Notes: generated from the letters alone by a model not told the origin. Shown: positions 6,220 to 43,479, numbered from the stretch's first letter. The stretch is DNA of 60,692 bases from Syntrophobacterales bacterium (GCA_037441775.1 JBBIRO010000013.1:1-60692); one strand, 5' to 3'. Translations and numbers: made by a program.

Positions 6220-6235
6220 GACTTTTTTCGAGTTC
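6220..6235 (+). repeat. copy of dispersed motif GACTTTTT(A)CGAxxTC
   Basis: GACTTTTTTCGAGTTC lies 20 nt upstream of ATG 6256. It is preceded by the hairpin CCTTG-gcaatagg-CAAGG. Confidence 0.5.
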
Positions 6236-23823: not shown

Positions 23824-25149
23824 TTACCCTCCCCATTCTTCGGCCACCTTGTTGACGGCATAGAGTATCTGCTCAATATCTTCATCGCTGTGCGCCAAAG
23901 AGAGCGCCCCGCCGCCGTATTTCGTATAAACGCCATGATTGAGCAGGGAAAGACGGTAGCGCTTGTCCCGGGCAGCGATATCCGTTTTTAAGTCCACATC
24001 TTCGATATTCTTTAAAATCGCATCGTCGGATTGCGGAAAACAGGTGTTGAACAGAGAGCCGACGCCGAAGCACTTGACCGGTATATTCCGGCACCGGAAG
24101 GCCTTCTCGATTCCGGCGCGCACTCGCCGCCCCTTTTCTGCGAGCGCGGGATAAATTTCCGCCTCGTTTACCTCCAGAAAATTGAGCATGGCCCGACCGG
24201 CGATCATCGCGGGAATGAGGCCGGAGAAGGTGCCGCCGCCGATCAGCACTCCCTGTCCTTTGGACTTGTCACGGGATGGGTTGGCCAGATCCATGATATC
24301 TTTTCTGCCGGCCACTATCCCCAGCGGCAACCCACCTCCCAGCACCTTTCCCATGGTGATGAGATCTGCCCGCAGTCCAAACAGGCCCTGGGCGCCGGTC
24401 AAGCCGAGTCGAAATCCGGTAATAACCTCGTCCAGAATGAAAACAGCGCCGGCCTTCCGGGTTTCTTCCTGAATTGCTTCTAAAAAACCGGACTCCGGCG
24501 GGATGAAATACTGGCCCACCGCCTCGATGATCACCGCGGCCAGGTTTGCCCCCTGACGTCTTATCTCATCAATGGCCTGAGCGGAATCATTGAAGGAAAT
24601 TGTTTTGCTGTAGTCTGATATGCCGGGAGGCAAGCCGGAGCTTGACGCGACATCCATCGGTGAACGCACGGCGAACAGGAGATCGGTGGAAGCTCCGTGC
24701 CATCCACCCCGCACCTTGATAATAACCGGACGTCCGGTATAGGCCCTGGCTAACCTGACCGCGTACATGGTCGCTTCTGTCCCGGAGACGCCGAATCTCA
24801 TCTGCTCGGCGCCCGGCACGATGCGGCAGATATCTTCGGCAAATTGCACTTGCAGTTCGTTGACAATCCCCCAATGGGTGCCATTGGTGAGTCCTTTTTT
24901 CAGCGCCTCAACAATAAATTCGGGCTGATAACCTGATATGTGGGCGTAGTGCCCCATCCATAGATCGATATATTCGTTGCCGTCCACATCCTGAATTTTT
25001 GAGCCGCGGGCGGACTTGATGTAAAGGGGATAGGGTTCGAAAAATCTGGGGTTATGGGAGATGCCGCCGGGCATAACCTGTAATGCCCGTTCAAATAATT
25101 TGGCTGAACCAGGGGTTTTGGCCTGGTAATTTTTCAAATATTGTTCCAT
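23824..25149 (-). CDS. class-III PLP aminotransferase, glutamate-1-semialdehyde aminomutase-like
   Basis: 441 aa with 'VSGTEATMYAVRLAR', 'FILDEVITGFR' and 'GKVLGGGLP' (PLP Lys region). The N-terminus differs from canonical HemL. Confidence 0.75.
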   Translation of the reverse strand: MEQYLKNYQAKTPGSAKLFERALQVMPGGISHNPRFFEPYPLYIKSARGSKIQDVDGNEYIDLWMGHYAHISGYQPEFIVEALKKGLTNGTHWGIVNELQVQFAEDICRIVPGAEQMRFGVSGTEATMYAVRLARAYTGRPVIIKVRGGWHGASTDLLFAVRSPMDVASSSGLPPGISDYSKTISFNDSAQAIDEIRRQGANLAAVIIEAVGQYFIPPESGFLEAIQEETRKAGAVFILDEVITGFRLGLTGAQGLFGLRADLITMGKVLGGGLPLGIVAGRKDIMDLANPSRDKSKGQGVLIGGGTFSGLIPAMIAGRAMLNFLEVNEAEIYPALAEKGRRVRAGIEKAFRCRNIPVKCFGVGSLFNTCFPQSDDAILKNIEDVDLKTDIAARDKRYRLSLLNHGVYTKYGGGALSLAHSDEDIEQILYAVNKVAEEWGG

Positions 25150-25339: not shown

Positions 25340-25355
25340 GACTTTTTACGAATTC
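25340..25355 (+). repeat. copy of the dispersed motif (GACTTTTTACGAATTC)
   Basis: It lies 42 nt upstream of the panB ATG and is preceded by the GCGCGGGCGC palindrome. Confidence 0.5.
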
Positions 25356-25397: not shown

Positions 25398-26249
25398 ATG
25401 ACCACCCCAACCAAAGTAACCATTCCATACCTGAGGGAAAAGAAGACCGCGGGTGTGCCGATTGTAATGATAACCGGATATGATTTCCCCATCGCCGCAA
25501 TTGAAAATGAGGTCGGCATCGATATCATTCTCTGCGGCGACTCGCTCGCCATGACCGTATATGGCTTCAGCGGCACCACCCCGGTGACGATGGATATCAT
25601 GATTCCGCATGCCGCCGCGGTAAAGCGGGCCGCCCCCCAGAGCTTCGTCATCGGGGATATGCCATTTATGTCCTATCAGATATCTAATGAACTGGCCGTA
25701 GCCAACGCCGGACGTTTCATCCAGGAGGCCGGAGTGGACGGGGTGAAACTGGAAGGCGGCGTAGAAATGGCCGGACGGATCGCCGCCATCAGCCAGGCCG
25801 GTATTCCCGTCATGGGCCATCTGGGCCTGACTCCCCAATCGGTATCGGCGCTGGGAGGTTTTAAGGCCCAGGGGAGAAATGTTGAGAGCGCGCTTAAACT
25901 TATAAATGATGCCAAAATCCTGGAGGAAGCGGGCGCATTTAGCATTCTGCTCGAAGCCATCCCGACCCCGGTCGCCCGGATTATCACTAAACGCGCCGGC
26001 ATTCCGATCATCGGCATCGGTGCGGGCCCCGATACCGACGGCCAGGTTCTGATTGCTCACGACATCCTCGGGTTTTTCCAGGGGCACAAGGCTAAGTTTG
26101 TCAAGGAATACTGCAATCTCAACGATATTATCCGGACGGCTTTGTTAAGTTATAAAAAAGACGTTCTGGAAGGCGTTTACCCGGAAGAAAAACATTGCTA
26201 TCCGATTGATGCGGATACACTAGCCGCAATCGAAGAAAAGTTGCGATAG
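25398..26249 (+). CDS. panB: 3-methyl-2-oxobutanoate hydroxymethyltransferase
   Basis: 283 aa with 'ITGYDFPIA', 'ILCGDSLAMTVYG', 'DMPFMSY', 'VKLEGG' and 'GHLGLTPQS'. Confidence 0.95.
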   Translation: MTTPTKVTIPYLREKKTAGVPIVMITGYDFPIAAIENEVGIDIILCGDSLAMTVYGFSGTTPVTMDIMIPHAAAVKRAAPQSFVIGDMPFMSYQISNELAVANAGRFIQEAGVDGVKLEGGVEMAGRIAAISQAGIPVMGHLGLTPQSVSALGGFKAQGRNVESALKLINDAKILEEAGAFSILLEAIPTPVARIITKRAGIPIIGIGAGPDTDGQVLIAHDILGFFQGHKAKFVKEYCNLNDIIRTALLSYKKDVLEGVYPEEKHCYPIDADTLAAIEEKLR

Positions 26250-26267
26250 CCAAAGAGGTTTACAACT

Positions 26268-27572
26268 GTGGAAATAAAAAAATTTCACCTGAAATACGGG
26301 AAGGGCGAAGTGGAATTTGAAATACCGGCCTCCCGGTTCTATTACGAAGTCCTGGGCAGGGAATATCCCGCTATTGCCGACGTTTCCCAGGCGGTACGGG
26401 ATGCTTTGAATCACCCGATAGATGCGCCGCCGCTTAAGGAAATTTTGAAACCATCCGATCGGGTGGTAATCTCCGTAAGCGATATTACCAGGATTTGGCA
26501 GCGGATGGATCTCGTCCTGCCGCAGCTTATCGCGACTGTCAATGCCGCCGGGGTGCCCGACGAAAACATCACCATTATCGTTGCCGTAGGAGGTCATCGT
26601 CACAACACGCCGGAAGAAATCTGCCAAATCTGCGGCCGGGATCTAGCGGAGCGGATCAAGGTCGTCAATCACGATGCCTATGATTCTGAAAACATGGTTT
26701 ACCTTGGGAAAACCAGTCGCGGCACCGAAGTTGCCGTCAATCGGATCGCCGCCGAGGCCGACCGGCTGATCCTTACCGGCGGCATCATTTACCATTATAT
26801 GGTTGGCTATGGCGGCGGCAGAAAAAGCGTCCTGCCGGGAATAGCCTCAATTAAGACCATCCAGCAGAATCATCTTTGGGCGCTGGGACCGACGTTGGGT
26901 TCCGGGGCCAACCCCAATTCCCAGTCCGGCAAAACCCGCGGCAGCGAATGCCACGAAGACATGATGGAGATCACCGCTTTCGTCCAGCCGGACTTTATCC
27001 TGAATGTCGTTCCCAATCCCCAGGGGGAGTTTGCCGGAGTATTCGCGGGCAATTGGGTTTCCGCTTGGCAGGAGGGAACGAAGCTGGTGGACCATATTTA
27101 TGCTGTTCCAACCCCCGGCCGGGCCGATATCGTAATTGCCTCGGCGGGAGGATTTCCCAAGGATATCAACCTATACCAGACTGGTAAGACTTTCGACAAC
27201 GCCTACTGGGCGGTGAAAGAAGGGGGAGCCGTCATCATTGTCAGCGAGTGCCCGGACATTCTCGAACCGCTGGAATTTTCCCAGTGGTTCGAGTATTCAT
27301 CACTGCTCGAAATAGAAAGGGCGCTTCGTGACAACTTCACTATTCCCGGCTGGGTGGCGTGGAAGGCTTTGGAATGCACCGAGCGGGCGGCCTGTATCAT
27401 GATGACCAGGCCGGAAAATGCCGATTTTTTAAAAAAAGCAAATATCATGGCTACTGCGAGCATGGATGAGGCGCTGGCAATGGCATATCGGCTATGCGGG
27501 AAGAAGGAGCCCACGATAACCGTCATGCCCCAATGCGCCAATACTCTACCGATATTGAGCCAGGTGTCGTGA
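26268..27572 (+). CDS. LarA-family nickel-pincer-dependent 2-hydroxyacid racemase/epimerase homologue
   Basis: 434 aa with a GTG start. It has 'VISVSDITRIW', 'AVGGHRHNTPEE', 'IYHYMVGYGGGRKSVLPG' and 'QQNH'. These align by eye with the LarA SDxTR, catalytic His, NPN-tethering Lys and Ni-binding His. Confidence 0.75.
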   Translation: MEIKKFHLKYGKGEVEFEIPASRFYYEVLGREYPAIADVSQAVRDALNHPIDAPPLKEILKPSDRVVISVSDITRIWQRMDLVLPQLIATVNAAGVPDENITIIVAVGGHRHNTPEEICQICGRDLAERIKVVNHDAYDSENMVYLGKTSRGTEVAVNRIAAEADRLILTGGIIYHYMVGYGGGRKSVLPGIASIKTIQQNHLWALGPTLGSGANPNSQSGKTRGSECHEDMMEITAFVQPDFILNVVPNPQGEFAGVFAGNWVSAWQEGTKLVDHIYAVPTPGRADIVIASAGGFPKDINLYQTGKTFDNAYWAVKEGGAVIIVSECPDILEPLEFSQWFEYSSLLEIERALRDNFTIPGWVAWKALECTERAACIMMTRPENADFLKKANIMATASMDEALAMAYRLCGKKEPTITVMPQCANTLPILSQVS

Positions 27573-27608
27573 CAGTCAATCCCGGCGCCGAAATTAAAAA
27601 GGAGGAAA

Positions 27609-28607
27609 ATGATGAAAAGGTATTTTGCAATTTTTGTTTTTGCAGCTGTGGCCGCCCTGCTTTCTATCGGCCTGACCCAGCCTCAAGAGGCCCTGGCCCA
27701 GGGTAAGATGGTTCTTAAGGCCGGCAGTTCAACCGCGGAGACGCATCCCTACAATCTGGGGCTCAAAAGGTTTAAGGAACTGGTGGAAAAAGAAACCGGC
27801 GGCAGAATAGAAATCCAGATATTCCATAGCAGCGCCCTGGGAGCGGAGAGGGAACTGGCGGAGGGGATGCAGATCGGCAGCGTCGATGTGGTTATTTCTT
27901 CCACCGGTCCCCTGGGGGGCTTCGTTCCCCGGATGAACGTCGTGGATCTGCCCTTTTTGTTTCGCGATAAGGCCCACGCCTATAAGGTTCTGGACGGCCC
28001 CATCGGCGCCTCTCTTCTGACTGAACTGGAGAAACGAAACATTATCGGGCTTGCCTTCTGGGAAAACGGCTTTCGTCATGTGACCAACGCTCGAAGGGAA
28101 ATCAAGACCCCGGCCGATTTGAAAGGGCTGAAGCTGCGCACCATGGAAAACCGGGTGCATATGGCTGCCTTCCGCCAGCTTGAGTCCTCGCCCACGCCGA
28201 TGGCCTTCTCCGAGGTCTTTACGGCGCTGCAGACCAGAACTCTCGATGGCCAGGAAAATCCGATACCGGTCATCTTCACCTCGCGTTTTTACGAGGTCCA
28301 GAAATTTCTGTCGCTGACCGGACATGTCTACTCGCCGGCTCCGCTGATGGTCAGCAAACACACCTGGGACCGGCTTACGGAAGAGCAAAAAACGATCTTT
28401 AGAAAGGCGGCGCTTGAGGCCCGTGATTATGAAAGGGATCTGATAACCAGGCAGGAAAACGAACAGGTGGATAAATTGAAGGCCGCCGGAATGACCGTGA
28501 CGCAGGTTGACAAATCGCTTTTCCAGCGGGCAACCCTGCCGGTTTACGCCCAATTTGAGGCGGAATTCGGCAAGGACTTAATAGAGCGCATCGTTAACAC
28601 CAAATAA
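27609..28607 (+). CDS. TRAP transporter substrate-binding protein (DctP family)
   Basis: 332 aa with a signal peptide ending 'EALAQG'. DctP-type 'LRTMENRVHMAAFRQLESSPTPMAFSEVFTALQTRTLDGQENP' is present. Confidence 0.9.
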   Translation: MMKRYFAIFVFAAVAALLSIGLTQPQEALAQGKMVLKAGSSTAETHPYNLGLKRFKELVEKETGGRIEIQIFHSSALGAERELAEGMQIGSVDVVISSTGPLGGFVPRMNVVDLPFLFRDKAHAYKVLDGPIGASLLTELEKRNIIGLAFWENGFRHVTNARREIKTPADLKGLKLRTMENRVHMAAFRQLESSPTPMAFSEVFTALQTRTLDGQENPIPVIFTSRFYEVQKFLSLTGHVYSPAPLMVSKHTWDRLTEEQKTIFRKAALEARDYERDLITRQENEQVDKLKAAGMTVTQVDKSLFQRATLPVYAQFEAEFGKDLIERIVNTK

Positions 28608-28633
28608 AACCAAAGTCCGCTGCGCCATTTTAG

Positions 28634-28666
28634 CCTGTCCCTCCGGCAAGGAGGGACAGGTGTTTC
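28634..28666 (+). terminator. perfect 11-bp hairpin between the TRAP binding-protein and permease genes (attenuator/stabiliser)
   Basis: CCTGTCCCTCC (28634..28644), loop GGCAA, GGAGGGACAGG (28650..28660), then TGTTTC. Confidence 0.5.
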
Positions 28667-28712
28667 ATCGTCGGCAGAGCTGAAGCAGGAGGGCCTTATC
28701 GTACTTAAATAT

Positions 28713-29174
28713 TTGAAAATCATGGAGTTGGTAAATCTTATCGTCACCTGGTTGGTCGCAGTAATCCTGGGAACGATGTCGGTGGTGGTATTTTCACAGG
28801 TGATCTACCGCTATGTACTGGAATCCCCCCTGCCCTGGTCGGAGGAACTGGCCCGCTACCTGATGGTATGGCTGGTATTATTAGGCGCCTCCCTGGGCCT
28901 GCGCTCGAAAGCCCTTATCGGAATGGAGGCACTGATAAACGTTTTTCCCGCGCCGCTGAAAAGATTTTCCGTCGAGGCGGTTTTAGTTTTCTCGCTCATG
29001 TTTCTTGCCGTAGTAATGATTTATGGAATAAAGCTCACCATTATGAATCACGCTCAGGTCTCCCCGGCAATGGGAATTCCCATGTCCTTGCCTTATGCGG
29101 CAATCCCGGTGGGTGCGCTGCTCATGATCGCCAATGCGCTGGTGGTGGCCATAGAAAGGTGGAAAAAAGAGTAG
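28713..29174 (+). CDS. TRAP transporter small permease (DctQ family)
   Basis: 153 aa with 4 TM segments and a 'SEELARYLMVWLVLLG' DctQ-type motif. The start is TTG 28713 or ATG 28722. Confidence 0.85.
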   Translation: MKIMELVNLIVTWLVAVILGTMSVVVFSQVIYRYVLESPLPWSEELARYLMVWLVLLGASLGLRSKALIGMEALINVFPAPLKRFSVEAVLVFSLMFLAVVMIYGIKLTIMNHAQVSPAMGIPMSLPYAAIPVGALLMIANALVVAIERWKKE

Positions 29175-30458
29175 ATGGCGACAACCCTCATCTTGTCTCT
29201 GATAGGTTTTTTCCTAATCAACCTGCCAATTGCCTTCTCCCTGGGGGCGGCGGCAACCCTGACCATAATTCTTCAGGGGCAGGTGCCACCCACTTTAATC
29301 CCCCAGCGGATGTTCGCGGCCATTGATTCCTTTCCCCTGATGGCCATTCCCTTCTTTGTTCTGGCGGGCAACCTGATGGGCTCCGGCGGGATTTCAAAAA
29401 GGCTGATCAATTTTGCCACCTGTCTGATCGGTAAGACGACGGGCGGTCTCGCCGTGGTAACCGTCGCCACCTGCATGTTTTTCGCCGCCATTTCCGGCTC
29501 CAGCGCGGCAACGGCGGCGGCGATAGGAACCATTTTAATTCCGGCAATGGTGCAGCACCGTTATTCAGTAAATTTTGCGGGCGCCACCGTAGCCTCTTCC
29601 GGCGAGCTGGGAGTTATCATCCCGCCCAGCATCCCCATGGTTCTCTTTGGCGTCATGGCCGGCCAGTCCATCGGCACCATCTTTATCGCCGGCTTTCTCC
29701 CGGGAATCATGATCGCGTTAACCCTGATGCTGACCGCCTACATTATTTCCCGGATCAAGGGCTACGCCGGCACAAAAAAGGCCTCCGCCCGGGAAACGTG
29801 GCGGGCATTCAAAGACGCGCTGCTGGCCCTGTTGATGCCGGTTATCATTCTGGGAGGAATATACGGCGGCATCTTTACACCAACTGAAGCGGCGGTAGTG
29901 GCAGTTTTCTACGGATTTTTGGTGGGCAGCATCGTGTATCGCGAGATTAACATCTACAATATCAAAAACATCCTGGTCAATTCAGCCATAACCACCGCCA
30001 CCATAATGATTATCATCTCCACCGCCTCCACCTTCGGTTGGATAATGACCAGGGAGAGGATTCCGATTATGATCGCCGAGACATTTCTGGCGATCACGGC
30101 GAACCCGGCGGTCTTTCTGCTTTTGGTAAATCTCCTGCTCCTTTTTATCGGAACAATCTTTGAAACGTCGGCCGCGTTGATTATTCTAACCCCGCTGCTC
30201 TTTCCCATCGCGGTTCAGCTTGGCGTACACCCCATTCACTTCGGCATGATCATGATCGTCAATCTCGCGGTAGGCATGGTTACGCCTCCTTTGGGGATAA
30301 ACCTTTTTGTCACCTGCAATATCGCCAAAATACGGATCGAGGACATGGCTGGATACCTGCTGCCTTATCTGCTGGTGCTTATCGCCAACATCTTCATAAT
30401 AACATACATCCCGCAGATAACGCTGTGGCTGCCAACTGTTCTGGGGATGTTTGACTAA
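29175..30458 (+). CDS. TRAP transporter large permease (DctM family)
   Basis: 427 aa and polytopic. It starts 1 nt after the dctQ stop. 'AIPFFVLAGNLM' and 'SGSSAATAAAIG' are DctM signatures. Confidence 0.9.
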   Translation: MATTLILSLIGFFLINLPIAFSLGAAATLTIILQGQVPPTLIPQRMFAAIDSFPLMAIPFFVLAGNLMGSGGISKRLINFATCLIGKTTGGLAVVTVATCMFFAAISGSSAATAAAIGTILIPAMVQHRYSVNFAGATVASSGELGVIIPPSIPMVLFGVMAGQSIGTIFIAGFLPGIMIALTLMLTAYIISRIKGYAGTKKASARETWRAFKDALLALLMPVIILGGIYGGIFTPTEAAVVAVFYGFLVGSIVYREINIYNIKNILVNSAITTATIMIIISTASTFGWIMTRERIPIMIAETFLAITANPAVFLLLVNLLLLFIGTIFETSAALIILTPLLFPIAVQLGVHPIHFGMIMIVNLAVGMVTPPLGINLFVTCNIAKIRIEDMAGYLLPYLLVLIANIFIITYIPQITLWLPTVLGMFD

Positions 30459-30466
30459 GGACGTTT

Positions 30467-31726
30467 ATGATCCCTCCCCTTGCCGTTGTGGAGCAGACCC
30501 TGCCGGGTGAGTCAATTTCAGACCTGCCCTTCGCGGTGAACCGGGAACTGTCCCGGATGAATCTGGAAACTAAAATAACCGCCGGTATGACTGTTGCCAT
30601 TACCGCCGGCAGCAGGGGAATTCACCGGATTGATGAGATTATCAGGCAGGTTGTCATCCAGGTCAGGGCCCTGGGAGGGCGGCCTTTTATTGTCCCGGCG
30701 ATGGGCAGCCACGGCGGGGCGACGGCTGTGGGCCAGGTTGAACTTCTGCGGGAGCTGAATGTCACCGCCGAATCAGTGGGAGCGCCCGTCGTCTCTTCCC
30801 TGGAAGTGGTTCAAATCGGCTCAACCGATTGCGGACTGCCCGTTTACATTGACAGCCATGCCGCCCGGGCCGGCGGAATAATCGTCATTGCGCGAATTAA
30901 GCCGCATACGGATTTCAGAAATTACCTCGAAAGCGGCCTCCAGAAGATGCTGGTCGTGGGCCTGGGCAAGCACAAGCAGGCATTGGCGATTCACCGCTTC
31001 GGCGTGGAGGGACTGAAAAAATTCATAAATCCCGCGGCGCGAGTTGTTCTGGAGAAAACCCCGGTTTTAATGGGATTGGCGGTAATTGAAAATGGACGCG
31101 ACCAAACAGCAAAAGTCGTCGCGCTTAAACCTGACGAAATCGAGGAGCAGGAACCCACGCTGCTCAATGAGGCCCGATCATTGCTGCCCAGGCTGCCTTT
31201 TTCCGAGATTGACATTCTGGTAGTGGAAAAACTCGGAAAGGACATCAGCGGCACCGGAATGGACACCAACATCATCGGGCGGGTCGGCATTCCTGGTGTG
31301 GCTGACTTTGGTGACCTCAAGGCGAGATACATTGTTGTTTTGAGGTTAAGCGAGGCGTCCCACGGCAATGCCCTGGGGATTGGATTGGCCGATTTTACCA
31401 CCGAACGGGTCAGAAACGCGATTGATTATCCGGTGATGCGAGAAAACGTCATAACCAGCACTTTCGTTGAACGTGGCAAGATTCCCCTGGCCTTTCCCAG
31501 TGACCGCGCCGCCATCGAGGCCGCCTTGCGCTGCGTCTGGAATTGCGATCCGCTAAGCACCCGGATTGTATTTATTCGTAACACCAGGGATATTGAGCGC
31601 TTTATGGTCAGCTTCAGCCTGCTTGCGGAATTGCAGGATAAGGCGGGGATCAGGGTTTTGACGCCCTCGAGGGAACTTTCTTTCGATGACACCGGGAATC
31701 TCCCGCCGGAGCTGATTCCTTTTTGA
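30467..31726 (+). CDS. divergent LarA N-terminal-domain (DUF2088-like) protein
   Basis: 419 aa. 'MTVAITAGSRGI', 'IVPAMGSHGGAT' and 'ARIKPHTDF...GLGKHKQA' parallel the LarA layout, but the SDxTR motif is absent. Confidence 0.5.
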   Translation: MIPPLAVVEQTLPGESISDLPFAVNRELSRMNLETKITAGMTVAITAGSRGIHRIDEIIRQVVIQVRALGGRPFIVPAMGSHGGATAVGQVELLRELNVTAESVGAPVVSSLEVVQIGSTDCGLPVYIDSHAARAGGIIVIARIKPHTDFRNYLESGLQKMLVVGLGKHKQALAIHRFGVEGLKKFINPAARVVLEKTPVLMGLAVIENGRDQTAKVVALKPDEIEEQEPTLLNEARSLLPRLPFSEIDILVVEKLGKDISGTGMDTNIIGRVGIPGVADFGDLKARYIVVLRLSEASHGNALGIGLADFTTERVRNAIDYPVMRENVITSTFVERGKIPLAFPSDRAAIEAALRCVWNCDPLSTRIVFIRNTRDIERFMVSFSLLAELQDKAGIRVLTPSRELSFDDTGNLPPELIPF

Positions 31727-31729
31727 GCC

Positions 31730-32677
31730 ATGTCCTGCCGCCATCTTCGACATCTGGGGCGCCCTATGGATCGGTTATCAAATCTTTTCAAAAACAGAAA
31801 CTTCATCCTTCTTTTAGCCATTTTTTTCGGTTTTTTGCTGCCTCAGGCGGCAGGTTTAACCAAGCCGCTCGTACTTCCCGCTCTGGCGCTGGTTTTGGCG
31901 CTCTCCACCATGTCCATCAGCAGCAGCAGTATTCTGATTGCTCCCCGGAAACTGCTCTTGCCTGTTGTGGTGGGCATTGCCATGAGTTACCTGGTTTTGG
32001 GTAATTTCATCATTCTGTTGAGCACGGCCCTGATCAAGAATGATACTCTCTGGAAAGGTTTTGTGCTGATGGCCGCCGTTCCGCCCGCTATCGCCATAAT
32101 TCCCTTTTCGCTGATTCTGCGAGGAAATGCTGTATATTCCCTCGTCGGCACGGTCGGGGCTTACCTGGGAGGTTTGTTCTTCCTGCCATTGCTGGTGATC
32201 GCTTTGATCGGTTCCGCCGTAATTAAGACTTATGATCTCATTATGATAGTACTGCAACTGGTGGCGCTGCCGCTGATCCTTTCGCGCCTGCTGATCCTCA
32301 AAGGATGGAATCTGAAGCTCGAACCGCTAAAGGGCCTGATAACGAACTGGTCCTTCTTTCTGGTACTCTACTCTTCGGTGGGAGCTAATCGGGACATCCT
32401 GCAGAATTTCTCCATGACGCTTCTGTCAGTGGCGCTGATCGCCTTTGCCAGCACCTTTCTGCTTGGTTATATAATTGAGCTTGCCGGTCGTTTATTTCAT
32501 ATCGCCAAAGATATCCTGACTAGCGTCGTCCTTTTGGGGACGATGAAAAACTATGGCGTTGCCAGTGGGATTGCCTTGACTTTTTTACCGAAAGAAAGCG
32601 CTCTGCCGGCGACGCTGGGAACGATTTTCATGATTTTGTTTGTTATCTTTCTGGATTTCAGAAATCGCCGCCGCTAG
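31730..32677 (+). CDS. polytopic transporter, bile acid:Na+ symporter (BASS/SBF)-like
   Basis: About 9-10 TM segments, with 'AAVPPAIAIIPFSLILRGNAVYSL' resembling the BASS P...GN motif. The likely start is ATG 31766 (MDRLSNLF). Confidence 0.45.
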   Translation: MSCRHLRHLGRPMDRLSNLFKNRNFILLLAIFFGFLLPQAAGLTKPLVLPALALVLALSTMSISSSSILIAPRKLLLPVVVGIAMSYLVLGNFIILLSTALIKNDTLWKGFVLMAAVPPAIAIIPFSLILRGNAVYSLVGTVGAYLGGLFFLPLLVIALIGSAVIKTYDLIMIVLQLVALPLILSRLLILKGWNLKLEPLKGLITNWSFFLVLYSSVGANRDILQNFSMTLLSVALIAFASTFLLGYIIELAGRLFHIAKDILTSVVLLGTMKNYGVASGIALTFLPKESALPATLGTIFMILFVIFLDFRNRRR

Positions 32678-33946
32678 TTGATGAGGGAAACGATTATGGA
32701 AAAGAGAGGATATCTTCCACATTACGGTTACATTGTTGCCGCAGTGAGCATCCTGGTGGTGCTTGGTTCGCTGGGTCTGGGGCGCTTTTCCTTTACCATG
32801 ATCTATCCCAACATGATGGAAGGTCTCCGGCTTAGCAACACCGAGATGGGATTTATCGCGTCGATCAATTTCCTGGGATACATGATATTTTCGCTGGCCG
32901 GCGGCATCCTGGCCAGCAGATATGGACCAAGGCTCATAATTTCCCTGTCTTTGATGATTGCTGGAATTGCCATGATTTTAACGGGCTTTGCCGGGGGCCT
33001 TGCCCTGGCCATGCTGATGAGGTTCATAACCGGCCTGGGAAGCGGCGGGAGCAATGTGCCGGTAATGGGTCTTATTTCTTCCTGGTTTTCCCCCCGACGC
33101 CGCGGGATGGCGGCGGGGCTGGCCGTTGGCGGATCAGGAATTGGCATTGCCGGCGCCGGCATTATCGTGCCCTTGATAAACAACTCATACCTTCAGGATG
33201 GCTGGCGCTGGAGCTGGCATTTTCTGGGGGGGGCGGTTGTCTTTATCGGGTTGGTTGCTTTTATTTTTCTTAGAAACTCGCCTTCCCAGAAGGGCTTGCA
33301 GCCGGTAGGAGCAACCATAAGCAGCCACGGGCAGGATGCCCAAAAAACCGCCGCTTCACCCTTCACCTGGGGCCTGATCTATCGCAACCGGGAAGTCTGG
33401 CGGCTTGCCTTCTTGTATTTCCTCTTCGGATTTTCCTATATCATCATGGTCAACTTCTTTTCCGTCTATCTCATCCGTGAAGCGGGGCTGGCCGAGAAAA
33501 CCGCCGGCTACCTCTGGTCCATAGCCGGCCTGCTGGGTATTTTCAGCGGCTTTGTCTGGGGAAACATTTCGGACCTGCTGGGCCGCAGAAGGGGTCTGTT
33601 TATGGTCTTTGGGCTTCAGGGAATCTGTTTCGCCATTTTTGCCCTGGGGCAGTCACCCATTTATTACTGGTCAACGGCGATCATCTTTGGGATAACATCT
33701 TTTGCCACTCCGGCGATTATCGCGGCGGCAACCGGCGATCTTGTCGGCGCCCGGCTTGCTCCGGCCGGATTGGGGATGATAACCGTGCTATTTGGTATCG
33801 GTCAAATCATGGGGCCGGCCATGGCAGGCTATCTGGCTGATTTAACCGGAACCTACCGGATCGGTTTTTTTATCGCCGCTCTGGCGGCATTGACCGGAGC
33901 TCTGGGGTCGCTATCCATTAAAACGCTGACGCTGGCCCGGCATTAA
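32678..33946 (+). CDS. MFS transporter
   Basis: 422 aa with 12 TM segments and an MFS loop motif 'GGILASRYGPRL'. Confidence 0.8.
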   Translation: MMRETIMEKRGYLPHYGYIVAAVSILVVLGSLGLGRFSFTMIYPNMMEGLRLSNTEMGFIASINFLGYMIFSLAGGILASRYGPRLIISLSLMIAGIAMILTGFAGGLALAMLMRFITGLGSGGSNVPVMGLISSWFSPRRRGMAAGLAVGGSGIGIAGAGIIVPLINNSYLQDGWRWSWHFLGGAVVFIGLVAFIFLRNSPSQKGLQPVGATISSHGQDAQKTAASPFTWGLIYRNREVWRLAFLYFLFGFSYIIMVNFFSVYLIREAGLAEKTAGYLWSIAGLLGIFSGFVWGNISDLLGRRRGLFMVFGLQGICFAIFALGQSPIYYWSTAIIFGITSFATPAIIAAATGDLVGARLAPAGLGMITVLFGIGQIMGPAMAGYLADLTGTYRIGFFIAALAALTGALGSLSIKTLTLARH

Positions 33947-38616: not shown

Positions 38617-38925
38617 AGGGAATAGCAGGCAATCCGTAATTATTTAAGTTACAAGTGTTTAGGCAGTATTGGGGTGGAACAAATTTGCCGGCGGGCGCCG
38701 AAAATGCCCCTGCCCGGCAGCCGCCGGCCTTGCGCCCGCGGCCGCTTCAGCCAGAGGCGACACCGCTTTATCGCTCTTGTTTTAAGCGCCGCCGCTCGAA
38801 GCTGAATCGTAACTCCCGACAGCGGCAATAGATTGACAAACCGGGCGGAAAATAATAAACGCTACGCAAATCCGCCGATGATATCGGAACATCAAGCGGA
38901 CATATTTTATAAAGGAGGCTCGACA

Positions 38926-40053
38926 ATGTTCAAGGGTAGATGGTATGTTTTTGTTGCGGCGGTATTTATATGCCTGTTTTTGGCAACCTCTCTTCAGGCG
39001 CAACCAAAGGTTTACACCTGGAAGATGCAGAGCACCTGGGCGGCGGGCGCTTATGAGCACGTCAATCCCAAGGATCTGGTGGCGAAGCTGGAGGCCATGT
39101 CCGGCGGAAGGCTCAAGATTGAACTGCTGCCTGCCGGCGCCATCGTTCCCGCCTTTGAAGTCCTGGACGCGGTCAACAAGGGGGTAATCGATGCCGGTCA
39201 TGGCTGGCCCGGTTACTGGGTTGGGAAGCATCCCGCCATGGCCTTGTACAGCACGGCCGGCGGCGGTCCCTTCGGGATGGAGCGGGAAGATTTCATGAGC
39301 TGGGTGTATCTGGGCGGCGGACTTGACCTTTACAATGATTTGCTGCAGAAAGAATTAAAATATGACGTAATCGCCCTGCCTACGGCCGGTGACCCGCCGG
39401 AACCCCTGGGATGGTTCAGGAAACCAATGAAATCGGTAGCGGAATTCAAAGGCATCAAGTTCCGCGCCGCCGGAATGGCCGCGGAAGTATTCCGGGAATT
39501 GGGGATGTCAGTTGTCACTGTGCCGGGCGGCGAGATTGTGCCCGCGCTCGAAAGAGGCGTCATTGACGGCGCGGAATATCACAGCCCCAGCGCTGATCTT
39601 TCCATCGGTCTGCACACCGTTCGCAAGTTTTACCACATGCCCAGCATCCACCAGCCAACGGGGTTCATGGAGCTTCTGGTAAATAAAAAGAAATGGGATG
39701 AACTGCCGGCCGATCTCAAGGAAATAATACGCGGGGCCTGTATGGCTGACACCCTGCTGTTTGCCTTAAAGCAGATCGACCAGAACTCCAAAGATTTGGA
39801 AACGATGGTAACCAGGCACGGGGTGACCGTGGTGGAAACGCCCCGGGAGATGCTCTTGGAAATGCTTAAAGCCTGGGATAGGGTGGCCGAAAGACGCGCC
39901 AAGGAAAATCCGTTTTTTGCCAGGGTTCTGGCATCGCAGCGTTCGTGGGCGGGCCGGGTGGTCCCCTTCCGATTGATCTATCATCCGCCTTTTGATTCGA
40001 TTGCCGATCATTACTGGAAAGGCGTAAACCCTTACAGGGTCGTCAAACCTTGA
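38926..40053 (+). CDS. TRAP transporter substrate-binding protein (long COG4663/FcbT1-like type)
   Basis: The start ATG 38926 follows an AAAGGAGG RBS. The signal peptide is 'MFKGRWYVFVAAVFICLFLATSLQA'. It is followed by matching small and large TRAP permeases. Confidence 0.8.
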   Translation: MFKGRWYVFVAAVFICLFLATSLQAQPKVYTWKMQSTWAAGAYEHVNPKDLVAKLEAMSGGRLKIELLPAGAIVPAFEVLDAVNKGVIDAGHGWPGYWVGKHPAMALYSTAGGGPFGMEREDFMSWVYLGGGLDLYNDLLQKELKYDVIALPTAGDPPEPLGWFRKPMKSVAEFKGIKFRAAGMAAEVFRELGMSVVTVPGGEIVPALERGVIDGAEYHSPSADLSIGLHTVRKFYHMPSIHQPTGFMELLVNKKKWDELPADLKEIIRGACMADTLLFALKQIDQNSKDLETMVTRHGVTVVETPREMLLEMLKAWDRVAERRAKENPFFARVLASQRSWAGRVVPFRLIYHPPFDSIADHYWKGVNPYRVVKP

Positions 40054-40113
40054 ACAGAGGGTTAGTATTCGAGTTCTCGGTGACGAGTTAATTTGCCTGG
40101 TGAGGCGCGCTGA

Positions 40114-40157
40114 CTCCGGATTACCCTGCCCTCGCTGGAGGGGAATCCGGAGTTTTT
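40114..40157 (+). terminator. strong hairpin plus T5 between the TRAP binding-protein and permease genes
   Basis: CTCCGGATT (40114..40122) pairs with AATCCGGAG (40144..40152). TTTTT follows at 40153..40157. Confidence 0.6.
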
Positions 40158-40201
40158 ACTAAGCCGTAAAGCATGAAGGCTTAGCAAAAAGTGGCAAAGG
40201 C

Positions 40202-40227
40202 GTCGTTCCCGCCGGCGCTGGAATGAC
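40202..40227. repeat. GC-rich palindromic REP-like element (GTCGTTCC-CGCCGGCG-CTGGAATGAC)
   Basis: The arms GTCGTTCC/GGAATGAC pair (one G-U) around the CGCCGGCG palindrome. It is related to the element at 45887..45912 in the opposite orientation. Confidence 0.6.
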
Positions 40228-40244
40228 AAAATGTGAGGTTTCAC

Positions 40245-40261
40245 GACTTTTTACGAGAGTC
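40245..40261 (+). repeat. copy of the dispersed motif (GACTTTTTACGAGAGTC)
   Basis: It lies 80 nt upstream of the TRAP small permease start and 17 nt after the palindromic element. Confidence 0.5.
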
Positions 40262-40341
40262 TCAAACATGATTAACTCGTAATAAGCGACGGTTTTGCCT
40301 GTTGCCAAGGCGGACAAGGGGCATAGAGTCTGAGAGTTATT

Positions 40342-40869
40342 ATGAAACAATTCCCTGAAACATTAGCTAAAGTGGCAAGCGTAATTGATGCCGCCGCTGA
40401 AAAGGCGGGCGCTGTAATATGCTGGCTCATGGTTCCCCTCGTTTTTGGCCTTACCTATGAGGTTGTCGCCCGTTATCTTTTTAACGCTCCTACCATCTGG
40501 GCCTACGACCTGGCTTACATGCTCTACGGCAGCCTTTTTATGCTGGGCGCCGCCTATACCCTGCGACAGGACGGGCATATCCGTACCGATATTTTTTATT
40601 ATCGCTGGCAGGATCGAACAAAGGCCCTGGTGAACATGTGCTGCTATCTCTTTTTGTTTTTCCCGGGGATGTTATTTTTCTTCATTGCCGGGCTCGATAA
40701 TGCCATTCATTCCTGGTTGATTTTAGAGCGATCAGACTATAGCCCCTGGCGTCCACCCCTCTATCCCTTCAAAACGGTGGTGCCGCTCACAGCACTGATG
40801 CTGTTGATCCAGGGTTTTTCCGAGTTTCTAAAAAGCCTTAAAACATTTTTAGCCAGGGGCCGCCAATGA
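40342..40869 (+). CDS. TRAP transporter small permease
   Basis: 175 aa with 4 TM segments. It overlaps the large permease start by 4 nt. Confidence 0.8.
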   Translation: MKQFPETLAKVASVIDAAAEKAGAVICWLMVPLVFGLTYEVVARYLFNAPTIWAYDLAYMLYGSLFMLGAAYTLRQDGHIRTDIFYYRWQDRTKALVNMCCYLFLFFPGMLFFFIAGLDNAIHSWLILERSDYSPWRPPLYPFKTVVPLTALMLLIQGFSEFLKSLKTFLARGRQ

Positions 40870-42182
40870 GTCCTGAGTATCTGGGTCTTCTGTTTCTTGC
40901 GGCGCTTCTGATTGGGATTTTTGTGGGGTTCCCCATTGCCTTTACGCTGATCATCCTATCGGTAATATTCGGTTATATCGGATTTGGCCCCCGCGTTTTT
41001 GACCTGATGGTGCTCCAGACCCTGGGGGTGATGAAGGAGGAGACGCTGGCCGCGGTGCCGCTTTTTATTTTCATGGGCCATCTCTTAGAGAAGGCCGGCC
41101 TGATGGAACGGCTATTTACTTCGTTTCAGTTGATGTTAGGCGGGCTTAAGGGATCGCTTTACCTGGGGGTTCTGCTCACCGCCACCATTTTTGCCACCGC
41201 GACCGGCATCATCGGCGCTTCGGTTACCGTCATCGGCATCATGGCGGCCCCGGCGATGACCAAAAGCAAGTACGATCCAAGGCTTTCGGCGGGAACAATA
41301 ACCGCGGGCGGAACCCTGGGCATTCTCATACCGCCCAGCGTGATGCTGGTGGTAATGGGGCCGGTGGCCGGGGTTTCAGTGATAAAACTATTCGCGGCGG
41401 CCATTGTTCCCGGCCTCATCCTGGCCGGTTTGTATATCGGCTACACGATGATCAAGTGCCAGATTTGGCCAAACCTGGGGCCGCCTTTACCCAGGGAAGA
41501 ACGGCTCGCTTCCAAGGCCATGATCCTCAAGGAATTCCTTTCCGGAATTCTGCCGATGGCATTCATCATTTTTGCCGCCCTGGGAAGCATTATCATGGGC
41601 CTGGCCACCCCGACGGAGGCCGCCGCCATGGCATCTTCTGGCGCAATCATTCTTACCCTCTGTTATCGCAGGCTTTCCTGGGCGATTTTCAAAGACGCCC
41701 TCTTAAAATCGCTGCAGACCTCAAGCATGATCCTTTTTTTGGGGATGGCTTCGAACATTTATGGAGCGGTTTTCACCCGTCTGGGCACGAGCAGCATGAT
41801 CGCCAACGCGCTGCTGAGCCTGGAGATACCGCCGTTGGCGATGGTGGCCCTGGTGATGCTCGTCATCTTCATTTTGGGCTGGCCCCTGGAATGGCCGGCA
41901 ATAGTCTTTATTTTTCTTCCTATTTTCCTGCCGGTGGTTCAGGAGCTGCAACTGGATCTTGTTTGGTTTACCACCCTGGTTGCGGTTAACCTGCAAACCG
42001 CCTTTCTCTCCCCGCCGGTGGCGATGGCGGCTTATTATCTAAAGGCGGTCGCGCCCCAGTGGGAATTAGCGGATATCTACCGCGGGATGTTTGATTTTAT
42101 GATTCTTCAGCTAATTGGGCTTGCGCTGCTTTTTTTCTTTCCAGAGTTTGCGCTTTGGCTGCCGCGATTGCTCTTTGGGTGA
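40866..42182 (+). CDS. TRAP transporter large permease (DctM family)
   Basis: 438 aa and polytopic, with 'AVPLFIFMGHLLEKAG' and 'ATGIIGASVTVIG'. Confidence 0.85.
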   Translation: MSPEYLGLLFLAALLIGIFVGFPIAFTLIILSVIFGYIGFGPRVFDLMVLQTLGVMKEETLAAVPLFIFMGHLLEKAGLMERLFTSFQLMLGGLKGSLYLGVLLTATIFATATGIIGASVTVIGIMAAPAMTKSKYDPRLSAGTITAGGTLGILIPPSVMLVVMGPVAGVSVIKLFAAAIVPGLILAGLYIGYTMIKCQIWPNLGPPLPREERLASKAMILKEFLSGILPMAFIIFAALGSIIMGLATPTEAAAMASSGAIILTLCYRRLSWAIFKDALLKSLQTSSMILFLGMASNIYGAVFTRLGTSSMIANALLSLEIPPLAMVALVMLVIFILGWPLEWPAIVFIFLPIFLPVVQELQLDLVWFTTLVAVNLQTAFLSPPVAMAAYYLKAVAPQWELADIYRGMFDFMILQLIGLALLFFFPEFALWLPRLLFG

Positions 42183-42294
42183 GGGCTTTGGCTGCCGCTC
42201 CTTTTACGGCTGTTGACCAGTTGAAGAGTCCGTGCTAGATGAAGATCAAAAAAGCCTGGGTAAGTAAATTTGATTATAAAAAAGTGAGGAGCAT

Positions 42295-43479
42295 ATGGCC
42301 GTCGCCAAAAAAATCGCCGATACGTTAACGAAATCATCCTGGATCAGGAAGATGTTTGAAGAGGGGATCAATCTCAAGAAGATCCATGGTGCCCGGAATG
42401 TCTTTGATTTCAGCCTGGGGAATCCCAATGTCGAACCCCCGCCGCAAGTAAAAGAACAACTGCAACGGATCATTGACGAAAAATCGCCCGGGATGCATGC
42501 CTACATGCCCAACGCCGGATACCCGGAAACGCGGGCGGCACTGGCCCTCCAAATCGGCCTCCAGAATGGAGTAACGCTCTCCGGGGAAGATGTTGTGATG
42601 ACCTGCGGGGCGGGCGGCGCTTTGAATGTCGTCTTGAAAACGCTGCTTGATCCGGGAGACGAGGTTGTAATTCCTGCGCCTTATTTTGTTGAATATCGCT
42701 TTTATGTGGATAACGCCGGTGGCGAAACGAGGCTGGTTAAGACTAACGAAGACTTCTCGCTTGATTTAGAAGCCATTGCCCGGGCCATTGGCCCCCGCAC
42801 CAAGGTTGTCCTCATAAACTCGCCCAACAACCCCACCGGTCGCGTTTACGATGAGACCTCGCTTAAGCTTCTTGCTGCATTGCTTGCTGAAAAGGGGCGC
42901 CATTACGAGACCGACATCTATCTGGTTTCCGACGAACCCTACCGGGACATCTCCTACGATGTGACGATACCGGGAATTCTTAAGCTCTATCGTAACAGCA
43001 TCATCGTATCATCCTACTCCAAAAGCCTTTCCCTGCCCGGGGAGCGGATCGGCTATATCGCCATTAATCCTGACTTGAGTGACCGGGAGGCGGTTATGGG
43101 CGGCCTGATCCTTTGCAACCGGATTTTGGGGTTTGTCAACGCCCCGGCCCTGATGCAACGCCTGGTTGCCTCGCTTCAGGGGGTGACCGTTGATGTTTCC
43201 GAATACCGCCGCAAAAGGGATCTCCTCTGCCGCGGGCTTGGGGAGATGGGCTACCGCTTCCAGATTCCCGAAGGCGCCTTTTATCTCTTTGCCCAATCGC
43301 CCATCGCTGATGATGTCGAGTTTGTCCGGATTTTGCAAAAACACCTGATTTTGGCGGTGCCGGGAAGTGGTTTTGGCGGGCCGGGTCACTTCCGGATCGC
43401 CTATTGCGTAGCCGATGAAACAATCACCCGGTCGCTTACGGGGTTTGCCAGGGCGATAGAGGAATGCCGCGGTTGTTGA
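42295..43479 (+). CDS. class I/II PLP-dependent aminotransferase (aspartate/aromatic type)
   Basis: 394 aa with 'INSPNNPTG', 'SDEPYRDISYD' and 'SSYSKSLSLPGERIGY' (PLP Lys). Confidence 0.85.
   Translation: MAVAKKIADTLTKSSWIRKMFEEGINLKKIHGARNVFDFSLGNPNVEPPPQVKEQLQRIIDEKSPGMHAYMPNAGYPETRAALALQIGLQNGVTLSGEDVVMTCGAGGALNVVLKTLLDPGDEVVIPAPYFVEYRFYVDNAGGETRLVKTNEDFSLDLEAIARAIGPRTKVVLINSPNNPTGRVYDETSLKLLAALLAEKGRHYETDIYLVSDEPYRDISYDVTIPGILKLYRNSIIVSSYSKSLSLPGERIGYIAINPDLSDREAVMGGLILCNRILGFVNAPALMQRLVASLQGVTVDVSEYRRKRDLLCRGLGEMGYRFQIPEGAFYLFAQSPIADDVEFVRILQKHLILAVPGSGFGGPGHFRIAYCVADETITRSLTGFARAIEECRGC

Follow-up and report, generated by a model that had tools for sequence, protein, structure and literature searches.

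Organization of the operon

The window analysed here is a 60,692-nucleotide (nt) stretch of DNA from a Syntrophobacterales bacterium (GCA_037441775.1, JBBIRO010000013.1:1-60692). At 25398-33946 its plus strand carries eight genes in the order panB, a LarA homologue of the LarAH10 clade, dctP, dctQ, dctM, a second LarA homologue belonging to group 22, an SBF-like carrier, and a carrier of the major facilitator superfamily (MFS) (Table 1). The dct genes encode a tripartite ATP-independent periplasmic (TRAP) transporter. We infer that the eight genes are co-transcribed as one operon. The recurrent pairing of its first two genes, panB and the LarAH10-type gene, is the central observation of this work.

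The assignment to one operon is based on the tight spacing of the genes on a single strand, the lack of a credible internal terminator, and a motif upstream of panB. From panB to the MFS gene the intergenic gaps in the open reading frame (ORF) listing were 18, 36, 105, 0, 8, 3 and 0 nt, the first of these being the distance between the 3' end of panB and the start of the LarA gene; 350 nt separate the MFS gene from the downstream radC. A terminator scan gave no intergenic site in the operon and fewer sites than in shuffled sequence. An Rfam search gave no relevant element upstream of panB or within the operon. The 105-nt spacer between dctP and dctQ contains a hairpin that was not called by the terminator scan; the RNA fold of 28600-28720 had an energy of -39.3 kcal/mol (z = -2.86). 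Hairpins of this kind are often found downstream of binding-protein genes, and the one observed here probably serves in mRNA stabilisation or processing and not in termination. The 16-nt motif upstream of panB, GACTTTTTACGAATTC, has seven copies in the window at up to 3 mismatches, compared to 0.55 expected from shuffles. Copies resembling GACTTTTTACGAAGTC stand at 6220, 8843, 18932, 25340, 50844 and 52685, and some copies are near-palindromic. Since they occur upstream of panB and other genes, the motif may be a promoter or operator element.

An earlier note, made from the sequence of the window alone, had placed the locus at 26268-33946. All ORFs that it described were recovered in the ORF listing and the profile searches, including the MFS carrier and the DctP, DctQ and DctM genes following the LarA gene, which encode three subunits together and all score far above the cut-offs. 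The start of the locus was misplaced: the unit begins at 25398 with panB, which the note did not list. Co-transcription, on which its reading depended, agrees with gaps of 0-36 nt throughout, except for the single spacer with the hairpin that lacks a U-tract.

Table 1. Genes and sequence elements of the panB-LarA operon, with positions counted from the first nucleotide of the window.
Feature	Position	Strand	Remarks
16-nt motif GACTTTTTACGAATTC	25340..25355	+	42 nt upstream of panB start; candidate promoter/operator
panB, 3-methyl-2-oxobutanoate (ketopantoate) hydroxymethyltransferase	25398..26249	+	Pfam Pantoate_transf 351 bits; TIGR00222 310 bits
LarA homologue, LarAH10 family, PanB-linked subclade	26268..27572	+	434 aa; NF052525; predicted nickel-pincer nucleotide-dependent 2-hydroxy-acid racemase/epimerase
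DctP-type TRAP solute-binding protein	27609..28607	+	Pfam DctP 333 bits; pantoate/D-erythronate-binding cluster by sequence
12-bp perfect hairpin without U-tract	28633..28661	+	in 105-nt dctP-dctQ spacer
DctQ, TRAP small membrane subunit	28713..29174	+	Pfam DctQ 118 bits
DctM, TRAP large membrane subunit	29175..30458	+	Pfam DctM 410 bits; TIGR00786 453 bits
LarA-superfamily protein, group 22	30467..31726	+	419 aa; NF052515; fills 'second epimerase' slot
Polytopic membrane protein, distant SBF/BASS-type carrier (weak assignment)	31730..32677	+	feature-based
MFS carrier, anionic-substrate type, last operon gene	32678..33946	+	MFS_1 161 bits

The LarAH10-type protein

The first LarA homologue consists of Pfam Lar_N (238 bits) and LarA_C (61 bits) domains and scored 618.3 bits against the NCBIfam model of the LarAH10 family, NF052525 (cut-off 540). 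This model is broad, as six paralogues pass it in Sporomusa aerivorans alone (625-675 bits). Over its full length the protein could be aligned to malate racemase Mar2 (6D6Z, E = 9e-71) and also to solved lactate racemases. In solved LarA and Mar2 the positions aligned with its motifs SDITR, GGHRH, YHYMVGYGGGRKS and QQNH are those of the catalytic and cofactor residues. In an alignment of the 120 closest database homologues (61-100% identity) the residues D72, R75, H108, H174, K184, H200, Y294, Q295 and K298 were invariant (Lactobacillus plantarum numbering, used for LarA throughout). Of these, H108 and H174 are the catalytic histidines, and D72, R75, K184 and H200 bind the nickel-pincer nucleotide (NPN). 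The catalytic histidines, the lysine and the other residues that the earlier note had recognized by eye are thus conserved in these 120 orthologues. As it also stated, the window has no larB, larC or larE genes for cofactor synthesis; all three were found by a profile search of the genome (LarB 305 bits against a cut-off of 175, LarC 218 against 90, LarE 330 against 150). Here larE and larB are neighbours on contig 44, and contig 20 carries larC.

The window LarA is a member of a separate orthologue group, in which the substrate pocket has its own fixed signature. Y175, G297 and W355 were present in 120 of 120 orthologues, and LarAH10 paralogues have Leu, Met, Ser or Phe at position 175, Val, Ser, Leu or Ala at 297 and mostly Phe at 355. 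The pocket of the window protein is made up of Y175, M176, G297, W355 and W358, and differs at every one of these positions from that of the characterized enzyme of Megasphaera elsdenii.

The PanB protein

The PanB protein passes the TIGR00222 equivalog model (310 bits against a cut-off of 208), and the catalytic and Mg-binding residues D45, S46, D84, K112, E114, H136 and E181 (Escherichia coli numbering, also used below) are conserved. The gene is single copy in the 2.36-Mb, 97%-complete genome, where it is located apart from panC and the likely panD: panC and a 120-aa ORF, probably panD, are on contig 58, and panE is on contig 40. Four positions, 202, 212, 214 and 216, were compared which we take, from engineering studies, to line the pocket for 3-substituents. 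In the clade of LarA-linked PanBs described below these are uniformly Ile, Val, Val/Ile and His, as in E. coli. The E. coli-like pocket and the fact that this is the sole PanB of the genome argue that the window PanB handles alpha-ketoisovalerate and ketopantoate.

PanB is often present in more than one copy in related organisms: 11 of the 13 genomes with a PanB-LarA pair contain 2-6 copies. All 36 PanBs that were compared keep the catalytic residues. Among 19 extra copies for which the surroundings were fetched none had panC beside it, and many extra copies neighbour TRAP, IlvD, GlcD/F-type dehydrogenase or group-22 genes. These copy numbers, together with the absence of panC next to the 19 extra copies, argue for a role of PanB beyond vitamin synthesis. 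The presence of 2-6 paralogues per genome is in itself an unexplained trait of these anaerobes.

Paralogues outside the LarA-linked clade have Asn, Leu, Cys or Ser at position 212 and Asn at 214. The Asn at 212/214 occurs in some PanBs that are not LarA-linked. A separate PanB clade (loci L146, L148, L157, L113, L137 and L143) is usually flanked by IlvD and TRAP genes. Paralogues of either kind, flanked by IlvD/TRAP genes or carrying Asn-212/214, may have a different 2-oxo-acid specificity.

Conservation of the PanB-LarA pair

To map the pair in genomes, orthologues with at least 59% identity to the window LarA were collected and about 20 kb around each was mapped with a reference panel. The orthologues are sporadic, being found in 5 of the 401 genomes sampled from the phylum to which the window belongs and in 8 of 401 of the phylum of Sporomusa. 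The former is probably Thermodesulfobacteriota, as the best outside match came from a Smithellaceae MAG. PanB was adjacent to or within the LarA cluster in 14 of the 15 genome loci, which span two phyla. TRAP genes (9 of 15), IlvD-family dehydratases (7 of 15) and group-22 genes (5 of 15) were less frequent. The exception is a sister species (G045), in which LarA is 87% identical and the single PanB is encoded on another contig. An independent scan of metagenome contigs gave 41 loci in which the LarA gene has flanks of at least 1 kb on either side. Among these, 35 contained PanB, which in 30 was the immediate neighbour of LarA, and 18 contained TRAP genes. The commonest layout was that of the window itself, PanB-LarA-DctPQM, and the spacing between PanB and LarA genes ranged from an overlap of ca. 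13 nt to a gap of ca. 28 nt.

In a maximum likelihood tree of the 36 PanBs from pair-carrying genomes, ten sequences formed a clade with 100/98 support. Eight of these are LarA-adjacent, one is encoded in the same cluster as LarA, and the tenth is the copy that has been relocated in the sister species. The window PanB is nested among Bacillota sequences inside this LarA-linked clade. We conclude that the two genes are inherited as a unit and apparently also transferred as one.

The genes that accompany the pair vary. Of 54 long loci, 40 contain only the PanB-LarA core, with or without TRAP genes, and have no kinase, PdxA or second LarA gene. Where a second LarA gene is present, its slot is filled by either an unclassified LarA type ca. 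30% identical to the first (8 loci) or a group-22 protein (6 loci), which suggests that these two have analogous roles. Most of the linked IlvDs pass the IlvD equivalog cut-off. Split UxaA-type dehydratases, GlcD/F-type dehydrogenases and a DHDPS-type aldolase also occur at related loci. Homologues of URO-D / MtaA-CmuA-like methyltransferases were observed near the pair in L135 (6463-7572) and L181 (3688-4806), and may be another link to one-carbon (C1) metabolism.

A different arrangement was found in two loci (L089 and L186), which have the order PanB-SBF-LarA with a good SBF gene in between. The first of these, from Sporomusa, reads IclR, then PanB-SBF-CoA-transferase-PanE/ApbA-2-oxoacid:ferredoxin oxidoreductase (three subunits)-LarA-group 22. 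Its LarA is a 50%-identical paralogue of the window LarA. PanB adjacency is absent for four of the five other Sporomusa LarAH10-family paralogues, and the fifth, that of L089, lies ca. 6 kb from PanB. The acetogen Sporomusa aerivorans (L089, L113) has an exceptional expansion of hydroxy-acid enzymes, with 17 Lar_N matches, four PanB copies (two in tandem) and seven IlvD-family genes.

Both LarA proteins of the window fall in known curated groups, so neither enzyme is of a new type. In the literature that was searched the conserved PanB-LarA operon family does not appear, and nothing was found there that connects either LarA or NPN enzymes to PanB or pantoate.

The group-22 protein

The second LarA-superfamily protein, which the earlier note had described as a more divergent Lar_N-like protein, gave a weak match to Pfam Lar_N (27 bits) and a strong one to NF052515, the model for nickel pincer cofactor-dependent isomerases of group 22 (503.9 bits, cut-off 400). 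The motifs AMGSHGGAT and IKPHTDF are present. In an alignment of 36 sequences R50, H82, H147, K160 and H176 were invariant, and their spacing reproduces that of Arg75, His108, His174, Lys184 and His200 in LarA. The counterpart of Asp72 of LarA is Ala47. With A47, R50, H82, H147, T148, D149, K160 and H176 the protein carries the A-R-H-H-T-D-K-H signature of group 22, which was published as A72/R75/H108/H174/T175/D176/K184/H200 (Desguin et al. 2020, PMC7583248, Dataset S2). Judging from the spacing to H147, K160 and H176 are the likelier counterparts of Lys184 and His200. The lysine of 'GLGKHK', singled out in the earlier note, is a poorer candidate than K160 because it is only about 90% conserved.

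A search by sequence gave no solved relative of the group-22 protein. An AlphaFold model built with the 36-sequence alignment had a pLDDT of 93 and a pTM of 0.90, and the top 19 Foldseek matches to this model were all LarA, Mar2, Sar, GntE or LarA-like proteins (probability 1.00, TM-scores 0.46-0.57, identity 12-18%). We are therefore confident that the predicted structure is of the LarA-like two-domain type. Group 22 is listed as a group of unknown function with no characterized member (PMC7583248). Its reported neighbourhoods contain short-chain dehydrogenases (45%), IlvD/Edd dehydratases, LarE and TRAP genes (30% each), and sugar kinases (PMC7583248 Table S1). The possibility that group 22 is generally linked to PanB was examined and rejected, as PanB occurred in only 2 of 80 group-22 loci.

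The genome of 2.36 Mb contains five LarA-superfamily genes. On contig 62 (3837-7384) a classical-type LarA homologue (469 aa), which scores below every equivalog cut-off, is paired in convergent orientation with another group-22 gene (443 aa, 513 bits).

Transport proteins

The solved proteins closest to the window DctP were 4PDD, the ligand of which is presumably erythronate, 4PDH, 4P9K/4PAK and 4NQ8 (E = 1e-89 to 1e-82 over the whole mature protein). Published ligands are erythronate for 4PDH, pantoate or erythronate for 4P9K and pantoate for 4NQ8 (PMC11668362, supplement). A pantoate/D-erythronate group of TRAP binding proteins is also named in a review, whose authors caution that co-purified ligands are possibly not native (PMC5812351). 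Published binding-site descriptions do not separate pantoate from erythronate binders. By sequence proximity the window DctP falls in the pantoate/D-erythronate cluster, and its ligand is predicted on this basis.

The gene at 31730-32677 had been labelled BASS-like in the earlier note. The family model did not sustain this label: TIGR00841 gave 25 bits against a cut-off of 326, and no Pfam match or PDB relative was found. Language-model atlas features gave a similarity of 0.98 to clusters carrying PF01758 SBF, which suggests, as a weak assignment, that the protein is a distant relative of the SBF carriers. It is conserved at 83% in the sister species. Bacterial carriers of the BASS type such as PanS and Neisseria ASBT transport or bind pantoate (PMC10645422). 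The best NCBIfam subfamilies for the MFS carrier were D-galactonate, phosphoglycerate and L-lactate transporters, all with scores below the cut-offs.

Two further TRAP systems were observed. The window contains a second TRAP operon at 38833-43479, with a divergent DctP-like protein of 406 aa (TRAP_S1, 64 bits), a 175-aa ORF without family match in the DctQ position, and DctM, followed by a pyridoxal phosphate-dependent aminotransferase (NF005305, 574 bits); this block directly adjoins the LarA cluster in the sister species. On contig 35 (22250-27470, minus strand) there is a paralogous TRAP system, of which the DctP is 45% identical to that of the window, two genes away from a weak DUF1537-like gene.

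Proposed function

Our best reading of the operon, which we hold with confidence balanced about evenly against doubt, is that it would serve uptake and C2 inversion of pantoate-like or four-carbon 2-hydroxy acids, coupled via a 2-oxo acid to PanB. The uptake-plus-stereoinversion module proposed in the earlier note agrees with this in general terms; the most conserved partner of LarA turned out to be PanB and not the TRAP system. Given the ligands of the solved relatives of the binding protein, the range of hydroxy acids considered there can be limited to the pantoate-like and four-carbon types.

In the proposed scheme the TRAP system and the two secondary carriers would import one or a few small 2-hydroxy acids with a four-carbon backbone. 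Judging from the proteins of known structure closest to the binding protein, pantoate, erythronate or threonate, and acids of the 2,4-dihydroxybutyrate type are candidates. The two LarA-superfamily enzymes would carry the NPN cofactor produced by LarB, LarC and LarE encoded elsewhere, remove the C2 hydride to form a transient 2-oxo acid, and put the hydride back on the other face so that C2 becomes inverted. The first LarA would work with PanB, the 2-oxo form of its substrate being ketopantoate or a close analogue. PanB would interconvert the ketopantoate-type compound with alpha-ketoisovalerate and 5,10-methylene-tetrahydrofolate (methylene-THF), with direction and substrate both predicted. 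A dehydrogenase that links the hydroxy acid to the oxo acid would be encoded outside the operon, candidates being PanE on contig 40 and GlcD/F-type proteins on contigs 21, 28 and 36. The product could be carried onward by the 2-oxoacid:ferredoxin oxidoreductase that contig 33 encodes and that is ca. 60% identical to the one in the Sporomusa locus L089. The group-22 enzyme, which occupies the slot of other LarA types in related operons, probably inverts a second, tetronate-like substrate. On paper, the gene set of L089 would make up a complete route from pantoate via ketopantoate to alpha-ketoisovalerate and methylene-THF, and from there via isobutyryl-CoA to isobutyrate.

Concerning the core substrate, we tentatively put pantoate first, although at less than even odds. 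Tetronates or 2,4-dihydroxybutyrate (four-carbon sugar acids) are possible, at a somewhat lower probability. An acid of some other kind is rather unlikely, and a valine-family hydroxy acid is more unlikely still.

Several points weigh against our best reading. PanB acts on 2-oxo acids and LarA on 2-hydroxy acids, so that a linking dehydrogenase is needed; this is the main weakness, as such an enzyme is absent from the window operon and most related loci. It is also hard to see what a racemase would do with pantoate, of which, to our knowledge, only the D-form exists in nature. In the sister species the LarA-TRAP-group 22 cluster is maintained without an adjacent PanB. Finally, sugar acids are a better match than pantoate for the IlvD-family (7 of 15 genome loci), split UxaA-type, and DUF1537 plus PdxA-type genes (6 of the 54 long loci). 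The link could be supplied either by housekeeping enzymes (PanE, IlvC, GlcD-type) or by hydride shuttling of the NPN enzyme itself.

The latter would turn the PanB-linked LarA from a mere racemase into part of a redox-neutral hydrogen-borrowing cycle with PanB, an idea that we consider improbable. In such a cycle the NPN would accept the hydride at C2 of a 2,4-dihydroxy acid (pantoate or tetronate), PanB would move the hydroxymethyl group of the released 4-hydroxy-2-oxo acid to tetrahydrofolate (THF), and the reduced cofactor would give the hydride back to the 2-oxo acid thus shortened. Overall, pantoate + THF would yield 2-hydroxyisovalerate + methylene-THF, or tetronate would yield glycerate + methylene-THF. 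If true, this would explain the two-gene core that stands in 40 of the 54 long loci without a dehydrogenase alongside, and might explain the occurrence of the pair in strict anaerobes, assuming that these rely heavily on folate C1 metabolism.

Alternative explanations

A tetronate operon is the strongest competitor, and we regard it as possible but clearly short of an even chance. The TRAP system would import D-erythronate, D-threonate or L-threonate and both LarA proteins would be tetronate 2-epimerases. A dehydratase or dehydrogenase encoded elsewhere would form 4-hydroxy-2-oxobutanoate or 2-oxo-tetronate, and PanB with THF would cleave the 4-hydroxy-2-oxo acid to pyruvate or hydroxypyruvate and methylene-THF. 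The existence of four stereoisomers would give the epimerases a clear job, and the solved relatives 4PDH and 4P9K of the binding protein bind D-erythronate. Among the in-vitro activities of the M. elsdenii LarAH10 are racemisation of 2,4-dihydroxybutyrate and epimerisation of gluconate/mannonate (PMC11770544). Directly after the second LarA-superfamily gene, the six long loci mentioned above encode a DUF1537 kinase (D-threonate-kinase-like) and a dehydrogenase of the PdxA family; L192, L195, L181 and L139 are loci of this type. The dehydratases and the aldolase at related loci fit as well, as does the published context of group 22, which is sugar-acid-like with its short-chain dehydrogenases, IlvD/Edd, sugar kinases and TRAP genes (PMC7583248 Table S1). 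However, a tblastn search with the kinase and PdxA-like proteins of L192 gave no match in this genome at 1e-8. The only DUF1537-like ORF, a weak one with 22% identity, is on contig 35, where the nearby paralogous TRAP may be this genome's tetronate system. Furthermore, the LarA-linked PanBs and most of the linked IlvDs score as canonical equivalogs, the pocket in the PanB clade is hydrophobic and E. coli-like, and the PanB of the window, being the only one, must accept alpha-ketoisovalerate. Because 40 of the 54 long loci contain the core only and no DtnK- or PdxA2-type gene was detected in the genome, we take the PanB-LarA core to stand by itself, with the tetronate genes as an optional addition.

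Scavenging of valine-family acids is unlikely. According to this explanation D/L-2-hydroxyisovalerate, and also 2,3-dihydroxyisovalerate where IlvD is present, would be imported, racemised and oxidised to alpha-ketoisovalerate, which PanB would use in its normal forward direction for pantothenate and coenzyme A (CoA) synthesis. Every enzyme would then keep its canonical specificity, in agreement with the equivalog scores of IlvD and PanB, the GlcD/F-type D-2-hydroxy-acid dehydrogenases in several loci, and the separation of the sole panB from contig 58, which holds panC and the likely panD. Racemisation of hydrophobic 2-hydroxy acids, 2-hydroxyisovalerate among them, is an activity of the LarAH10 family (PMC11770544). 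Yet the clade pocket has Tyr175, Gly297 and Trp355 where the characterized LarAH10 has Leu, Cys and Phe. The 2-6 PanB copies per genome would be left unexplained, as would the pantoate/erythronate-type binding protein, the SBF carriers, and the kinase/PdxA and UxaA add-ons.

That PanB is a housekeeping neighbour without functional tie to a broad-spectrum hydrophobic 2-hydroxy-acid racemase, of the sort published for M. elsdenii LarAH10, and its importers is very unlikely. In favour of this explanation, the LarA passes NF052525, the single PanB here must serve CoA synthesis and the sister species does without the adjacency. Against it, PanB adjacency was observed in ca. 85% of the ca. 55 loci that are informative, which come from two phyla as well as many metagenomes. 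The trees of PanB and LarA also agree well enough for the pair to appear co-transferred, and four of the five other Sporomusa LarAH10-family paralogues are not adjacent to PanB.

The coupling of LarA to PanB on pantoate-like or four-carbon acids stays our preferred reading. It suggests either an undescribed anaerobic route with PanB as a catabolic C1-releasing enzyme, or a new way of making or salvaging pantoate. The LarA superfamily was opened up recently; for LarAH10 only promiscuous in-vitro activities are known, and group 22 has neither a known function nor a solved structure. The combination of the PanB-LarA pair, a pantoate/erythronate-type binding protein and the clade pocket points to a handful of purchasable compounds for assays, by which the native substrates of two orphan groups of NPN enzymes become directly testable.

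Other genes of the window and genome

A class-III aminotransferase gene at 23824-25149 (minus strand), divergent from panB, was considered as a member of the pathway, for the supply of beta-alanine, and set aside, since it is the genome's only HemL-like gene. The protein is most similar to solved HemL proteins, yet it scored 325 and 331 bits on HemL models with cut-offs of 527 and 398; it is probably a divergent hemL product. At 16145-17962, adjoining dxs and an FPP-synthase gene, a 605-aa ORF was found that combines IspH (residues 33-313, above the TIGR00216 cut-off) with a C-terminal UbiA-type prenyltransferase-like region (residues 328-602). The matches of the latter were weak, and if correct it would be an unusual IspH fusion. 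An ORF of more than 2575 aa (52967-60691) runs off the window end in a region of higher G+C content (ca. 0.60). On contig 52 (41-2616) an IlvD-family fragment at the contig edge is followed by a UxaA-type dehydratase.

Comparison with known systems

The closest characterized relative of the first LarA homologue is LarAH10 of M. elsdenii (Plr/HHR). This enzyme was first reported as a phenyllactate racemase (PMC7583248). It has weak activity on 16 substrates with mostly hydrophobic side chains, also including 2,4-dihydroxybutyrate, glycerate and gluconate/mannonate, and its authors were unsure of the native substrate (PMC11770544). The two proteins share the NF052525 family, the two-domain architecture, identical catalytic and NPN-binding residues and the need for LarB, LarC and LarE. 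They differ in the pocket, where Tyr175, Met176, Gly297 and Trp355 of the window protein replace Leu, Phe, Cys and Phe; the complete M. elsdenii set is L175, F176, C297, F355 and F358 (PMC7583248 Dataset S2). The window LarA also forms a subclade distinct from the LarAH10-family paralogues of Sporomusa, to which it is only ca. 45-50% identical. Its conserved neighbour PanB is absent from the group-10 contexts listed in PMC7583248 (Table S1). The other LarA-superfamily protein resembles group 22 in passing NF052515, in its signature, and in its association with TRAP genes (reported for 30% of the group), whereas group-22 genes seldom share an operon with PanB and a LarAH10-type enzyme (PanB in 2 of 80 loci).

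For DctP the closest solved relatives are Veis_3954 (4P9K/4PAK), BB3421 (4NQ8), Bpro_1871 (4PDH) and the 4PDD protein. Their published ligands, (R)-pantoate and/or D-erythronate, were mostly co-purified, and binders of pantoate cannot be told from binders of erythronate by sequence.

A four-carbon acid-sugar pathway with DtnK (DUF1537) and PdxA2 was reportedly described by Zhang et al. in 2016; the NCBIfam models are NF047819 and NF002891. Related operons are similar to this system in carrying the kinase and dehydrogenase beside the second LarA gene and a TRAP binding protein of the same type. In contrast, neither gene was detectable in the window or the genome, and the described pathway has no PanB or LarA. 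Aerobic Pseudomonas degrades pantothenate via aldopantoate and dimethylmalate, a route that is not known to use PanB or LarA-type enzymes. The canonical pantothenate biosynthesis pathway (PanB, PanE, PanC and PanD) is represented in this genome by a bona fide PanB in the window and by PanC, a likely PanD and PanE elsewhere; what sets the window apart from that pathway is that its panB is detached from panC and panD and is placed within an uptake/epimerase operon.

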